Source of the DNA: an uncultured Eubacteriales bacterium
GTDB taxonomy: Bacteria; Bacillota; Clostridia; Christensenellales; CAG-138
Direction: 5' to 3'
NCBI GenBank assembly: GCA_902798825.1
Contig: CADBYI010000003.1
Coordinates: 1,993-65,992 of the forward strand
DNA: 64,000 nt
Translations under genes and position numbers: made by a program
In this document: positions 2,359-58,985 of the stretch, one piece after another
Numbering within the stretch: position 1 is the stretch's first letter
How the letters are laid out: every line of letters starts with the position of its first letter
Notes under the pieces: model-generated
The model's input: the letters and a program-made list of their open reading frames with translations, nothing else
The model's database searches: none
Told to the model about the DNA's origin: nothing

Positions 2359-2632
2359 AGAACCGAGGCATTCCTCGGTTCTCAGCTTGTCAAAAAACCT
2401 TTTGACAAGCTGAGCAGGCTGTCAGCAAAGGATGGTAGAAACGGCGTTCTTCGCCCCGAATCTGTACAAAGGTACTGCAAGAGGGCGAAAACGCCGTTAA
2501 TTTGCGGCATCTCGTTAAAAAGAAATGGCGGCATGCGCCATTTCCACCTATATGTATACTCCTGTCCATTTTTTGCCGCAAATGGTCTGCCGCCTTTTTC
2601 GACAGCCTGAGAACCGAGGCATTCCTCGGTTC
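2359..2632 (+). repeat. Terminator-embedded structured repeat, copy 1 (core 2382..2609; duplicated 23-bp hairpin at 2359..2381 and 2610..2632)
   Basis: Core shares long conserved blocks with 37015..37261 (reverse strand) and 49637..49862. Flanks are identical copies of AGAACCGAGGCATTCCTCGGTTC. Only the distal copy is followed by a T-tract (CTTTTGTTTTG). Confidence 0.9.
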
Positions 2633-2673
2633 CTTTTGTTTTGCACAATGGGCTGACGAACGAGGGTAAAGTG

Positions 2674-2772: not shown

Positions 2773-4851
2773 TTGGAGCAATCGAAAAAGAGAAAAGGAC
2801 GGACCACGATCATCGTACTGACGATTCTCGCGGTGATCTTGTGTTCGATCGGCATTCTGTATGGCGGGGTGACGCCCTATGTTTCAGCGGAATATGGGGA
2901 AAGCCTCCCACCGGCTGCTGTATTTGCCGGCGAGAACGCCCTGTACGTAGATGAATATGAGGAGCTGACGCAAGAAAAAGGGATACATCTGCTTCACATC
3001 AGGAAGCGGCCCGATGCTCTGCCGATTCCCGTCCTCCTAAAGGTCAGCGATACCTTGGCCCCGGCTGCTGAGGCCGCGGCAGACGTGCTCATTCCCCTGG
3101 GGGAAACCCGCCGCCCGGATCAGCTGCTGACCAACGTTCGCGACAACGATACCCTTCGCATCTATTTTGACACCGCCCCTGACTTTGCCACCGTCGGCGA
3201 TCACAGGGCCACTGTCATACTGGAGGACGCCTCCGGGAACAGTACCTCTGTGGTTTGCGACTATGCGATACACGGCGTCAACGAGGGCCTTTCCGTAGAA
3301 GCGGGCGCTGCCCTGCCGAATGAAAATGAATATCTGATCTGTGATCCTTCTGCGACGGGAGCGAAGCTGATCTCTCCCTACACCTCTGACATGACCCACC
3401 ACGTGGGGACCTATCCCCTTGTGTTTACCTTCTCCGGGGCGGACGCGCAGGAGGAAACCACCTTTCTCACCGTTCGTGACACCGTTCCGCCCACGGGCGA
3501 GGGGACCTTTGCTGCCGCAAAGCCCGGTGAGCCCGTAGCCGTCGAATCCCTTGTGGTCAACGCCACGGATGAAACCGACCTGACATACGGGTATGTGACC
3601 GCGCCGGACCTTGAGCTGTGCGCGCTGCAGGACGTGGTGGTCAGCATCACCGATGAAGGCGGAAACGAAACCCAGATCAGCTCCCGGCTGTATATCTCCT
3701 CCGTAGGCCAGATCCAGGTGGAGGCCCGGGACACGGCCCTGAATGCTGACGATTTTGGGACCGGAAAGGATATCGTTGTCGAGCCCTTTGTGCCCAACGA
3801 AACGGGTGAGTTCACTGTGAACATCCAAGTGGACGGGCACCCCGAAGCGGCGATCGTGACGGTGGTGGATCGCACCCCACCCACCATCTTCGTGAAGATG
3901 GATACTTTATACGGCCTGTATGTGGACCATCCCGTGGCTGTTGAGGACCTGTTTTCCGTTCAGGACGTGTCAGAGGCGACGATCCGATTCGCCAACGAGC
4001 CGGACTGGTCAAGGGTCGGAGAACAAACGATCTCTGTCCTGGCCACGGACGCCAGCGGCAACATGACCCAGTATGAGACGAAGCTGGCTTTGACGGCGGA
4101 CACGGAGCCGCCCGTGCTATATGGCGTCACGGACAGAAACGCCTATGTGGGAGAGGCTATCCCCTATCTGTTCGGCGTCAGCGCGACGGACGACGTAGAC
4201 GAAGAGGTAAGGATCGACGTCAACAGCCAGGTGGATATGCCCACGCCTGGTAGCTATGACGTGGTGTATACGGCCACGGACGTTTGCGGAAACAGCACCA
4301 CAAAGGCCTGCGTCTTCACTCTGATCGAGCCCACCGTCACCGAGGAGGATATCCAGCAGATGGCGAGGGCGGTCATGGCCGAGATCACCACCCCGGATAT
4401 GGTGAAAGCAGAGAAATTAAGGGCCATATTCGATTACGTTCGCCACCATATTCGATACGGGAACGGCATAAACCACAACTATACGGACTGGCGGAAGGCG
4501 GCCTTTGACGGATTCCAGAACGGAAGAGGCGATTGCTACAATATCTGGGCTGTGACGAAGGCGCTGCTGGACCAAACCGACATCACCTACATCTCGGTGG
4601 AGCGATTGAAGAGCTCCGCCCGCAGGACCCGCCATTATTGGGTGAATGTGGATTTGGGGACCGGATGGTACGTGTTTGACCCCACCTGGACGAATCTGCA
4701 TAAGTTCAATTGCTTTATGTGGACCGAGCAGCAGTGCCGATCCTGCTATAAATACTGGCTGTTCGACACGACCAAATACCCCGGGCTCGCCACAGAGACC
4801 TTCGACTACGATAAGATCGTCCAGATGGAACGGGACGGGCTGTTGCCCTGA
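2773..4851 (+). CDS. Membrane-anchored transglutaminase-like (Cys-protease fold) protein with repeated Ig-like domains
   Basis: 692 aa with TTG start preceded by GGAGGG. N-terminal TM segment and a long beta-rich repeat region. C-terminal core GRGDCYNIW...HYWVNVDLGTGWYVFDPTW (Cys/His/Asp arrangement). Confidence 0.75.
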   Translation: MEQSKKRKGRTTIIVLTILAVILCSIGILYGGVTPYVSAEYGESLPPAAVFAGENALYVDEYEELTQEKGIHLLHIRKRPDALPIPVLLKVSDTLAPAAEAAADVLIPLGETRRPDQLLTNVRDNDTLRIYFDTAPDFATVGDHRATVILEDASGNSTSVVCDYAIHGVNEGLSVEAGAALPNENEYLICDPSATGAKLISPYTSDMTHHVGTYPLVFTFSGADAQEETTFLTVRDTVPPTGEGTFAAAKPGEPVAVESLVVNATDETDLTYGYVTAPDLELCALQDVVVSITDEGGNETQISSRLYISSVGQIQVEARDTALNADDFGTGKDIVVEPFVPNETGEFTVNIQVDGHPEAAIVTVVDRTPPTIFVKMDTLYGLYVDHPVAVEDLFSVQDVSEATIRFANEPDWSRVGEQTISVLATDASGNMTQYETKLALTADTEPPVLYGVTDRNAYVGEAIPYLFGVSATDDVDEEVRIDVNSQVDMPTPGSYDVVYTATDVCGNSTTKACVFTLIEPTVTEEDIQQMARAVMAEITTPDMVKAEKLRAIFDYVRHHIRYGNGINHNYTDWRKAAFDGFQNGRGDCYNIWAVTKALLDQTDITYISVERLKSSARRTRHYWVNVDLGTGWYVFDPTWTNLHKFNCFMWTEQQCRSCYKYWLFDTTKYPGLATETFDYDKIVQMERDGLLP

Positions 4852-7504: not shown

Positions 7505-8743
7505 TCAATCGTCGTTCCAGGGGCGACGGGCCCAGACAAAGTTGCGTTTGAAGTATGACCCAAGATCCCGCTTCATCACCTTGCCGTTTCCGGAGGAGGC
7601 GTCGATCAAATTGCCACCGCCGATATAGATAGCGGTGTGACTGACGCCGCTGCTGGAATCGCTTCTGAAGAAGAGGATGTCCCCTTTCTCCAAATCGCTG
7701 ATGCTCGTGATCTTCTTCCATGCGCTCTTTTGTGAGTAGCCGGAGGAACTCATGCGCGTGACGTTGACACCGGCCTGCTTCAAGCACCAATAGACCAATC
7801 CGGAGCAGTCAAACTTGTTGGGGCCGCGACCACCGAGAACATATTCGCAGCCCAGCTTTTTTTCTGCCGCACGGATGAACTTGTCAATCCGGCCATCGGG
7901 CGTGGGCTTGGGCGTCTTGGTGGGGGTGGGCTTCGGCGTTTTGGTGGGTTTGGGGGTCCTCGTCGGCTTGGGCGTCTTGGTGACCTTGGGTGTCCTCGTC
8001 GGTTTCGGCGTCTTCGTGACTTTGGGCGTCCTTGTCGGCTTGGGCGTCTTCGTCGGCTTGGGTGTGGGCTTCTTCGTGGGCTTGGGTGTCTTCGTCGGCT
8101 TCGGCGTCGGTTTCTTCGTGGGTTTCGGCGTCTTGGTCGGCTTCGGCGTCGGCTTCTTCGTGGGCTTCGGCGTCTTCGTCGGCTTCGGCGTTTTCGTAGG
8201 CTTCGGCGTCGGCTTCTTTGTGGGTTTCGGCGTCTTGGTCGGTTTCGGCGTCTTGGTCGGTTTCGGCGTCGGCTTCTTCGTGGGTTTCGGTGTCTTCGTC
8301 GGCTTCGGAGTCTTCTTCGCCTTAGCCGTGGCTTTCTTCTTGCTGGACGTTTTCTCTGCCAGCTGTTCAGAGGACCTCTCCTCCGCCTGTTCTTTCTGGG
8401 CCTTCTCCCCCTCTGCGTCGTCCGTCTTCACATCGCCGGGGCGGCGGTACAAAACGATGGCACGCTGGGCCAAAGCAAAGGAGGGCATTGACCATTCGTC
8501 ATCAGCAGACCCCTCAGGCTGAGGCGTGGGAGAGACAGCTTGGAGGCTTGTCCCATTCCAGGCATCCTCACCGGTCGTCTCCACAGCGATCCCTTCCTCG
8601 ATAGCCTGCGGAATGGACAGGTAAAGACCCACCAGCAGGATCAGCAGCAGGGACAGAAAGGTTGCCGCCAGAAACAGCATGCGCCGGCCTCTGGTAGGCA
8701 CGCGGGCCGATAATTCGGTTTTTGACGTTTCCTGAGTATTCAT
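7505..8743 (-). CDS. NlpC/P60-family peptidoglycan endopeptidase with a long Pro/Thr/Lys-rich linker
   Basis: C-terminal [22 protein letters not shown]...[15 protein letters not shown] (Cys/His catalytic pattern) and an N-terminal TM anchor. The start is uncertain: ATG 8743 or TTG 8770. Confidence 0.85.
7900..8325 (-). repeat. Tandem ~18-bp coding repeat (PKPTKT units)
   Basis: More than 20 imperfect units of GGCTTCGGCGTCTTCGTC on the + strand. They encode (T/K)PKPTK repeats inside the NlpC/P60 gene. Confidence 0.85.
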
Positions 8744-8812
8744 AGGTATACTGTATCCTTTTTTTGTCAAATGCGCAAGGACAAGAGAAAAAAAGTCAAA
8801 TATTGTTCTTTT

Positions 8813-36929: not shown

Positions 36930-36992
36930 CCGCTGCTCTCCTTTATATGCGACGGGTCAGTCTACCACATTCCCGGCTCCATTTCAAGCAAA

Positions 36993-37283
36993 AGAGGAGC
37001 CTTTCGGCTCCTCTCAGGCTGTCGAAAAAGGCGGCAGACCATTTGCGTCAAATAAATAGATGGGCGGTCTATGGATCGCCCCCACAGAACTAAAGGTTGA
37101 AATGGCGCCAGATGACGCCATTTCTTTTGAATAGGTGCCGCAAATTAACGGCGTTTTTCCCCTCTCGCGGTACCTTTGTACAGCTTCGGGGGAAAGAACG
37201 CCGTTTCTGCCATCCTTTGCTGACAGCCTGTTCTGCTTGTCAAAAGGTTTTTGACAAGCAGAGAGGAGCCGTTTGGCTCCTCT
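36993..37283 (-). repeat. Terminator-embedded structured repeat, copy 2 (core 37015..37261; duplicated 22-bp hairpin at 36993..37014 and 37262..37283)
   Basis: The reverse complement of the core aligns with copies 1 and 3. It lies directly after the groEL stop (37301). On the minus strand only the distal hairpin is followed by TTTTG. Confidence 0.9.
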
Positions 37284-49613: not shown

Positions 49614-49886
49614 AAGCACCGCCAGCAGCGGTGCTTCAGCTTGTCAAATACCTTTTGACAAGCTGAGCAGGCTGTCAGCAGAGGATGGCAGAAACGGCGT
49701 TCTTCGCCCCGAAGCTGTACAAAGGTACCGCGAGAGGGCGAAAACGCCGTTAATTTGCGACATCTCTATTCAAAAGAAATGGCGGTTTACGCCATTTCCT
49801 CCTACCAGTGATTCTTCAAATGTATTTGTCGCAAATGATCTGCCACCTTTTTCGACAGCCTGAAGCACCGCCAGCAAGCGGTGCTT
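49614..49886 (+). repeat. Terminator-embedded structured repeat, copy 3 (core 49637..49862; duplicated hairpin at 49614..49636 and 49863..49886)
   Basis: The core aligns with copies 1 and 2. It sits between a convergent carboxypeptidase gene and metK. The flanks are AAGCACCGC-loop-GCGGTGCTT with a 1-nt loop indel. Confidence 0.9.
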
Positions 49887-58642: not shown

Positions 58643-58719
58643 CTGGGTGTAGCGCAGTTTGGTAGCGTGCTTGAATGGGGTTCAAGAGGCCGGAAGTTCA
58701 AATCTTCTCACCCAGACCA
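58643..58719 (+). tRNA. tRNA-Pro (anticodon GGG), CCA encoded
   Basis: Manual cloverleaf: acceptor CTGGGTG/CACCCAG, D stem GCGC/GCGT, anticodon stem CTTGA/TCAAG with loop A-T-GGG-G-T (G37), T arm GGAAG-TTCAAAT-CTTCT, then A-CCA. Confidence 0.9.
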
Positions 58720-58725
58720 AAGAAA

Positions 58726-58756
58726 AGAGACAGGGTATAACCTGGCTCTTTTTTTG
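58726..58756 (+). terminator. Intrinsic terminator after tRNA-Pro
   Basis: AGAGACAGG-GTATAA-CCTGGCTCT (one A.G mismatch) followed by TTTTTTTG. Confidence 0.7.
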
Positions 58757-58770
58757 TTTTTGTTCAAGGG

Positions 58771-58790
58771 ACTTCCGGCCTCTTGAACCC
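58771..58790 (-). repeat. Inverted 20-nt copy of an internal tRNA-Pro segment
   Basis: ACTTCCGGCCTCTTGAACCC is the exact reverse complement of tRNA positions 58678..58697. Confidence 0.95.
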
Positions 58791-58903
58791 TAAGAGGGGT
58801 TGTCTGCCGGTCGCCGTCAGGCGATTTCGGCCATCCTGTGAATGGTCGAAAAGGCGGACAACGGGCGGCAGTCCGCTGCGCAACAGCGGCAAGTCCGCCC
58901 CGG

Positions 58904-58972
58904 GGCCGGAAGTTCAAATCTTCTCACCCAGACCAAAGAAAAGAGACAGGATTACAACCTGGCTCTTTTCCT
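58904..58972 (+). repeat. Direct duplicate of the tRNA-Pro 3' half plus trailer and terminator-like hairpin
   Basis: 58904..58950 is identical (47/47) to 58688..58734. It is followed by the same hairpin stem with a different loop (ATTACAA versus GTATAA) and a T-run. No matching 5' acceptor strand is present. Confidence 0.95.
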
Positions 58973-58985
58973 TTTGTTTGAAACA

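Follow-up and report, generated by a model that had tools for sequence, protein, structure and literature searches.

Three copies of a structured element in the window

The 64,000-nt window, by which we mean the whole stretch of DNA that was analysed, holds three copies of a short element, about one per 20 kb. Each of them is flanked on both sides by a GC-rich stem-loop which is specific for its site, and a T-tract is found only on the distal stem-loop. For the copy at 2383, the proximal hairpin (AGAACCGAGGCATTCCTCGGTTCT), which is nearest to the gene, is located at 2359-2382 (+), and the T-run after it is gone. The same hairpin recurs distally at 2610-2633 (+), followed by the original T-tract (2634-2643). 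Distal hairpin and T-tract together (2610-2643) are predicted to be the working terminator.

The copy at 49 kb (whole unit 49614-49886, element 49637-49862, both +) lies between the convergent genes for an S11 peptidase and metK. It is flanked by hairpins at 49614-49636 (AAGCACCGCCAGCAGCGGTGCTT) and 49863-49886 (both +), the second of which carries a 1-nt loop indel. The copy at 37 kb is downstream of groEL on the reverse strand (whole unit 36993-37283, element 37261-37015, both -) and has about 20 extra nt in its variable segment. Its proximal hairpin (37283-37262, -) reads AGAGGAGCC-AAAC-GGCTCCTCT; the distal one (37014-36993, -) reads AGAGGAGCC-GAAA-GGCTCCTCT and continues into TTTT.

At the groEL site, two sister species (L085 with 98% and L084 with 97% GroEL identity) have one hairpin with a T-tract, and the element is absent. 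The single hairpin of L085 has the same stem as the hairpins in the window (AGAGGAGCC/GGCTCCTCT). Synteny ends exactly at the groEL terminator (36930-37014 of the window versus L084:4140-4260 and L085:1540-1640). Beyond it, the window continues with the element and then a patatin-like gene, while L084 and L085 have a different membrane-protein gene. This suggests a rearrangement at or close to the element.

Fold of the copy at 2383

This copy is a 227-nt fold (2383-2609) and all helices are given for the forward strand (+). P1 (2383-2395/2400-2412, CAGCTTGTCAAAA-AACC-TTTTGACAAGCTG) is a perfect 13-bp palindrome and represents the 5′ end of the element. The 3′ end is formed by the 3′ arm of P2 (2415-2423/2601-2609, CAGGCTGTC/GACAGCCTG). 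In P3, 2427-2431 plus 2434-2439 are paired with 2586-2591 plus 2593-2597, and this includes the pair U2436.G2589. P4 (2440-2456/2483-2498) has a GA-rich internal loop and an apical hairpin. P6 (2500-2507/2576-2583) encloses P5 (2522-2530/2536-2544, loop GCATG) and a variable AT-rich segment (2545-2575). Together, P2, P3, P4, P6 and P5 make up the structured core (2415-2609).

The six helices had been proposed in an initial annotation, and reading the sequence directly we found all of them at these positions. They are also returned by the minimum free energy (MFE) fold of the copy as RNA, which has -104.9 kcal/mol (z = -9.8) and is matched by none of 200 dinucleotide shuffles. Its complement is slightly less stable (-99.8 kcal/mol, z = -9.0), and the fold with DNA parameters is extreme, too (z = -11.8). 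The differences between the three copies that had been listed in support of the fold are real: the second pair of P1 is U-A and P4 carries the double change TTTCCCC/GGGGAAA in the 37-kb copy, the 49-kb copy has the A-U pair in P6 and the wobble stretch AGAGG/CCTTT, and the loop of P5 differs among the three.

A family of homologues maintains the fold

The element belongs to a non-coding, multi-copy family of about 225-250 bp, with more than 100 copies in about 25 metagenome-assembled genomes (MAGs) and in rumen metagenomes. Homologues were found with a 17-mer from the core, followed by scans for the P1/P2 junction and the P6 junction, and were confirmed by a purpose-built covariance model; most come from fragmented MAGs and metagenome scaffolds. 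The hosts are uncultured rumen and gut Clostridia (MAGs of Christensenellales type), in which the element is abundant. Since copies differ by indels that are not multiples of three, the element is considered to be non-coding, and the idea of a protein-coding element was discarded.

A larger alignment could have overturned the nested multi-helix fold of the initial annotation, which instead emerges strongly supported by the MFE fold, by covariation among homologues and by de novo folding of an alignment. In an alignment of 28 sequences, double changes occur at 17 of 50 pairs; among 64 copies aligned to the covariance model this rises to 33 of 50. Upon fitting these 64 copies to the model, 95.4% of the cells are paired, compared to 45-53% in slid controls. 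Their covariation score of 0.386 is not reached by any of 500 shuffles (0.146 ± 0.005). Because the 64-copy alignment had been fitted to the model, the analysis was repeated independently with 34 diverse copies, using a MAFFT alignment and de novo folding by RNAalifold. The resulting consensus has 56 pairs, 34 of them compensatory, and shows the same P2/P3/P4/P6/P5 architecture plus an apical P4b.

Whole stems have been rewritten between subfamilies. In P2, CAGGCTGTC/GACAGCCTG is replaced by GGCCCCCG/CGGGGGCC, and in the outer part of P4, AACGGCGTT/AACGCCGTT is replaced by AGCCGTTTT/AAAACGGCT or AATTCGTGTTTTCAC/GTGAAAACACGAAT. Subfamilies that share the multi-branch junction are only about 60-70% identical, and the interior three-way junction P3/P4/P6 with P5 has been maintained through extensive compensatory change. 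Covariation and the rewriting of whole stems thus argue that the fold is real and under selection.

P1 is an exception. It is nearly invariant: 71 of 73 copies keep its sequence, and its covariation is limited to rare variants, namely the 37-kb copy, L342 (T-A to G-C) and L358 (G-C to U-A). As P1 is conserved as a sequence, a role in protein recognition or as a terminal module is probable.

Ends, target sites and hairpin duplication

The boundaries of the element are precise (CAGCTTGTC...GACAGCCTG) and its ends are conserved across 73 copies. They are imperfect inverted repeats: the 5′ end (CAGCTTGTCAAAAAACC) agrees with the reverse complement of the 3′ end (CAGGCTGTCGAAAAAGG) at 12 of 17 positions. 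P1 and P2/P3 double as the conserved inverted-repeat termini of a mobile element, which limits the case for an RNA.

At many unrelated loci, the element adjoins the 3′ foot of a GC-rich stem-loop of an intrinsic terminator. Stems of 6 bp or more that end within 2 nt of the 5′ end of the element are present at 61 of 65 distinct sites, and the 32 nt upstream of the element have a mean MFE of -16.2 kcal/mol (-6.3 kcal/mol in control windows). Among the 35 complete P1-type copies with both flanks, 25 show a direct duplication of 21-32 bp which comprises the entire hairpin of the site. Its offset at the element boundaries is zero, and all 25 duplicated copies have exact ends on both sides. Two further complete copies have the duplication with an indel. 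Duplication length tracks each target hairpin, and this argues for an enzyme that reads structure (a cruciform or hairpin) instead of sequence or distance. The target-site duplication would thus be defined by the structure of the target. The end of the duplication does not always coincide with the end of the maximal palindrome. Its termini are usually A...T, which may indicate a weak cleavage preference.

A matching duplicate is absent in 10 of the 35 complete copies (L053, L196, L191, L205, L216, L231, L228, and others). Assembly chimeras account for a part of them: the RGIG775 contigs L215 and L216 share an identical 3′ flank and are probably chimeric. For the remaining ones, recombination or decay is needed as an explanation.

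Several observations relate to the history of the copies. Near-identical copies occur at different sites in different genomes. One locus (L187) has a tandem insertion in which element and hairpin alternate (E-hairpin-E-hairpin). In L217 and L358, both flanking hairpins stay paired by compensatory change. Duplication of a whole hairpin appears to be an undescribed insertion signature: our full-text literature searches, which included exact sequence strings, returned no description of it or of the element.

Strand preference and transcription

The initial annotation had read the fold as an RNA on the gene-sense strand which is co-directional with the upstream gene. Support for this is moderate and indirect. 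G.U pairs exceed A.C mismatches across the family (78 versus 41 cells; 42 versus 21 when counted per 90%-identity cluster, with a single conserved U.G position accounting for much of the excess). Among 34 diverse copies, 29 have a sense strand whose fold is more stable than that of the complement; the mean difference is -5.4 kcal/mol (Wilcoxon p ~1e-5), and in shuffles the composition favours the antisense strand, opposite to what is observed.

All three copies in the window are co-directional with their upstream genes, but this does not extend to the family as a whole. A one-sided count gave 47 co-directional copies against 18, and a general orientation with the upstream gene was rejected since tests with both flanks and with T/A tracts contradict it. 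According to our gene-orientation calls, which rest on a home-made codon model, neighbouring genes are convergent at 14 sites, antisense-only at 14, sense-only at 7 and divergent at 7. The flanking T/A tracts point in sense direction in 8 cases, antisense in 7 and both ways in 10. The 47 versus 18 excess is due to a preference of the sites for convergent intergenic regions, not for the sense orientation.

We lean towards the view that the sense strand folds as RNA, and it is possible that the same strand acts as single-stranded DNA. An internal promoter was not found in the element; P1 contains TTGACA but without a -10 partner for sigma-70. For sense-inserted copies, which include all three in the window, transcription that continues past the upstream gene would be expected to cover the element from end to end. 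On the antisense strand, P5 (2522-2544, -) is a hairpin followed by TTTCTTTTT, with the U-run UUUCUUUUU, and an equivalent is present in all copies and subfamilies; on the sense strand, this run is the A-run upstream of P5. An antisense terminator of this kind limits the case for a sense RNA. It is predicted to act as a canonical intrinsic terminator for transcripts that enter from the 3′ side. At one orthologous locus (L055/L061/L293), antisense P5 is seemingly the sole terminator of the adjacent convergent transporter gene.

Search for a mobilising enzyme and for relatives

Pfam scans revealed no protein of a mobile element in the window, where all 51 genes are of the housekeeping type. An all-against-all comparison of 1171 ORFs flanking the copies gave no recurrent partner protein; the only recurrent families are ABC transporters, LRR proteins and similar host families. 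Pfam also showed that cas1 is absent from all window genes and from the recurrent neighbours. A search for longer variants with the same ends, covering pairs of ends separated by 0.6-4 kb as well as plasmids and phages, was negative, and no cognate autonomous insertion sequence (IS) with a transposase was found in the window, beside copies, in plasmids or in phages. Copies of the element itself were not found in viral contigs, plasmids or phages, and four viral 17-mer matches proved to be chance matches.

Rfam 15 was searched with the window region and with divergent copies at gathering and at permissive thresholds. This gave nothing relevant, only a tRNA elsewhere in the window, and the element has no match to the omega-RNA, HEARO, IS605 or intron families. 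A sub-threshold match to STnc490, which is IS200-related, in L177 was rejected because it is outside of the element and lacks tnpA. The RNA-like fold family is new and has no relative in Rfam.

Comparison with known systems

The element shares several features with MITEs: its ends are inverted repeats, it has a copy-specific duplication of 21-32 bp, it is small, gene-less and dispersed, and there are relatives with a single hairpin. To our knowledge, however, a duplication of 21-32 bp is atypical of any IS family.

Group IIC (bacterial class C) introns are structured RNAs which insert directly 3′ of terminator or attC stem-loops and recognise these by structure. Insertion just 3′ of a terminator stem-loop is likewise seen at 61 of the 65 element sites. 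However, group II introns have at least about 600 nt and the six domains I-VI, usually encode a reverse transcriptase (RT) and do not duplicate their target, whereas the element has about 225 nt, no Rfam intron match, no six-domain structure and a duplicated hairpin.

With bcr1, Correia, RUP and ERIC, the element has in common that it is small, gene-less, dispersed in many copies, has inverted-repeat ends and is flanked by direct repeats. The bcr1 repeats of the Bacillus cereus group have been reported to be transcribed and to carry compensatory base changes which preserve an RNA structure (PMC3184786). However, the duplication of bcr1 has a fixed 5 bp, while the 21-32 bp found here are a whole terminator hairpin. 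Furthermore, the fold of our element is a conserved multi-branch junction, not a simple foldback, and there is no relation in sequence or in Rfam.

Long direct repeats of variable length (8-514 bp), for which there is no mechanistic model, are known from IS1549/IS1634 (PMC2266710). These, however, are autonomous DDE elements of 1.5-2 kb, their duplications have not been reported to be hairpins, and no related transposase occurs here. Extragenic GC-rich hairpins also are targets of IS1397/ISKpn1, of IS621/ISPpu10 (IS110 family) and of REP/RAYT systems, and ISPpu10 is reported to recognise sequence and structure (bioRxiv 10.64898/2026.03.19.712850). Such palindrome-targeting IS elements insert into or beside one conserved repeat family with a duplication of 0-4 bp, whereas our element uses any terminator hairpin and duplicates it completely. 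It also differs from IS200/IS605 elements and their PATE derivatives and from omega-RNA/HEARO, since a duplication is present, a hairpin is found at the 5′ end only and Rfam returns no match.

Cas1-Cas2 integrates beside cruciform-prone inverted repeats with duplication of a repeat (PMC5137440). In CRISPR spacer integration, staggered joining at the borders of a repeat of about 25-50 bp, which often is palindromic, duplicates that repeat, and this resembles our case. However, there is no cas1, leader or array as in CRISPR or casposon systems, and one conserved insert is found at many different terminators. None of bcr1, group IIC introns, IS1549/IS1634 and Cas1-Cas2 combines all features of the element.

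Proposed mechanism and alternative explanations

We consider it probable that the fold is the body of a gene-less, non-autonomous element that is MITE-like, mobilised in trans and integrated in a structure-specific manner. An enzyme encoded elsewhere would recognise the conserved end module, consisting of the P1 palindrome and the arms of P2/P3, and would join the element to both target strands at the two feet of the terminator palindrome. These feet are 21-32 bp apart in B-DNA and would be adjacent in space only in an extruded cruciform or hairpin. Gap repair would then duplicate the whole hairpin on both sides. As neither a mobilising enzyme nor an autonomous relative was found, we infer both the DNA-transposon mechanism and the cruciform geometry indirectly.

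Insertion would deprive the gene-proximal hairpin of its U-tract, so that co-directional transcription should cross the element and stop at the distal hairpin with its U-tract. Transcripts of the antisense strand would be expected to end either at the antisense terminator of P5 or at the other hairpin with its A-tract. Insertion would thus turn one bidirectional terminator into two unidirectional ones, which fits the compensatory pairing of both hairpins in L217 and L358. Because stops in sense and antisense direction remain after insertion, termination in the host would be preserved. The fold may be kept by selection on lineages that are still spreading, for instance if the mobilising enzyme uses it as a recognition scaffold or cofactor. 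Several points count against a MITE-like element: some complete copies lack a duplicate, distant subfamilies have neither P1 nor duplicates, the duplication does not always end with the maximal palindrome, and it is not obvious why a transposon of double-stranded DNA should require a covarying fold in its interior.

Each of the other explanations that we considered fails at least one observation. The covariation of the whole fold of about 200 nt, not of the ends alone, is what a cis-acting RNA template would need. It would suit a SINE-like retroelement with the sense read-through transcript as intermediate, whose fold is recognised by an RT that performs target-primed reverse transcription at nicks flanking the terminator hairpin. 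The 5′ and 3′ ends lie next to each other owing to P2, which closes the fold, the G.U excess and fold stability favour the sense strand, and read-through transcription is built into the architecture of sense-inserted copies. Target-primed reverse transcription, as known from LINE and SINE biology, typically yields duplications of variable length, as found here. However, no RT is encoded in the window or beside any copy, there are neither 5′ truncations nor A-tails, and the ends are exact in all 25 duplicated copies. Moreover, the transcript would include the distal hairpin of the donor, but new copies lack a donor hairpin, and orientation is independent of transcription. We thus regard a retroelement as unlikely. 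Slightly less likely still is an element that moves as single-stranded DNA, with the fold or P1 recognised by an HUH enzyme (IS200/IS605 or RAYT-like) or a tyrosine recombinase (attC-like) and the single-stranded terminator hairpin as target. The great stability of the fold with DNA parameters would agree with this, as would the layout of P1, which resembles a recombinase core site (11-bp arms and an 8-bp spacer), the targeting of structures instead of sequences, and the preference for one strand, which suits a top-strand mechanism. It is contradicted by the duplication of 21-32 bp, as known HUH and integron mechanisms do not duplicate the target, by the lack of a sub-terminal hairpin at the 3′ end and by the lack of a match to omega-RNA, HEARO or IS605 in Rfam. 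In addition, the copies in the window point both ways within 50 kb, so that there is no fixed orientation relative to replication.

Duplication of a whole 21-32 bp palindrome mirrors the repeat duplication at spacer integration, and a Cas1-family integrase (casposase-like or Cas1-Cas2) might use terminator palindromes like CRISPR repeats, leading to a repeat-insert-repeat arrangement. Off-target integration by Cas1-Cas2 adjoins cruciform-prone inverted repeats (PMC5137440), and re-insertion at a copy of the hairpin would give a tandem unit as in L187. We nevertheless judge this to be very unlikely: cas genes were found neither in the window nor beside copies, duplications by casposons have a fixed length of 14-15 bp at a target defined by sequence (PMC5137440), and the ends of the element are conserved in sequence while those of spacers are not. 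Least likely of all is a host ncRNA gene or 3′-UTR module, with a role in protection of mRNA 3′ ends or in control of termination, that has been multiplied by duplication or recombination and is not mobile. An old orthologous copy without P1 and hairpin duplicates has been kept in three species, its antisense P5 apparently terminating a transporter gene, and compensatory change keeps both flanking hairpins paired in some copies, which speaks for a host function. However, dozens of copies at unrelated loci have exact boundaries and site-specific hairpin duplicates, near-identical copies reside at different sites in different genomes, the groEL site of the sister species has one hairpin but no element, and contigs break at the element as they do at repeats.

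Target-site duplications normally are a fixed few bp, set by the geometry of the transposase, and a duplication of hairpin length implies a new rule for the choice of integration sites. A terminator that is split while termination remains intact would explain how the element reaches a high copy number without harm to the host. With its covarying interior fold, the element offers a concrete candidate for a mobility cofactor made of RNA or DNA, and it could be developed into a terminator-seeking insertion tool. A broader proposal, to which we give little weight, is an undescribed integration system in which a structured RNA or DNA is inserted by a structure-specific integrase or RT at any extruded terminator hairpin and duplicates this hairpin. 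If true, this would be a bacterial generator of the 'repeat-insert-repeat' type, either SINE-like or Cas1-like. It would provide a mechanism for target-site duplications defined by structure and possibly a model for the origin of palindromic repeat arrays.

Variant copies, assembly artefacts and other repeats

Distant subfamilies, in the RGIG3365 arrays and at the orthologous locus L055/L061/L293, lack P1 and hairpin duplicates. RGIG3365 has more than 35 copies of its divergent subfamily (L016:1-480 and 1380-1860; L068:1885-2272). The arrays are arranged head-to-tail and inverted with a spacing of only 3-7 nt, two subfamilies alternate, and the intergenic regions also contain several other short repeat families. 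Between the orthologous copies L055/L061/L293, four pairs of P4 differ in a compensatory way while the flanks are highly similar. Compensatory evolution in situ was considered and rejected, as these differences are better explained by gene conversion from another subfamily.

A related element of about 370 nt (L167:2041-2412) has the same 5′ module of P1/P2/P3, an interior that looks unrelated, and flanking hairpins that do not match. This may indicate that the end module is common to several types of cargo. In some copies, a second repeat of about 65-100 nt (GATGGCGACGCGCG...CGCGCGACGGCAC...CTGAAACGAAGCGAAGCGGAGTG) is nested in the apex of P4 (L226:224-437, L231:7285-7550, L205:7915-8105, L191:261-419, L358:~4540-4650). 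It would be another mobile mini-element which uses the element as its landing site.

Public assemblies collapse or break at the element. There are NN gaps inside copies, and many contigs end in P1/P2, with the LXOW01 scaffolds L181, L186, L187, L193, L197, L172 and L182 being affected. The element thus breaks metagenome assemblies of rumen Clostridia, and for this reason mismatches between flanks in MAGs should not be over-interpreted. Copies of 113-166 nt were considered as internal deletion derivatives, but all of them contain NN scaffold gaps and are assembly artefacts.

Two other repeats were noticed in the window. Inside the gene for an NlpC/P60 cell-wall hydrolase (7505-8770, -), a periodic repeat of 18 or 24 nt with 17 registers (7897-8376) probably represents a repetitive linker. 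The other one concerns tRNA-Pro(GGG) (58643-58719), where an exact 47-nt repeat (58688-58734 and 58904-58950, about 216 nt downstream) consists of the 3′ third of the tRNA and the 5′ arm of its terminator. The rest of the terminator follows in both copies, with an identical stem but a different loop (region 58643-58980), and about 125-170 nt of GC-rich, structured-looking non-coding DNA are found between them. This locus, which is unrelated in sequence to the hairpin-duplicating element, resembles a small insertion, or the remnant of one, that has an att-like duplication at the 3′ end of the tRNA.
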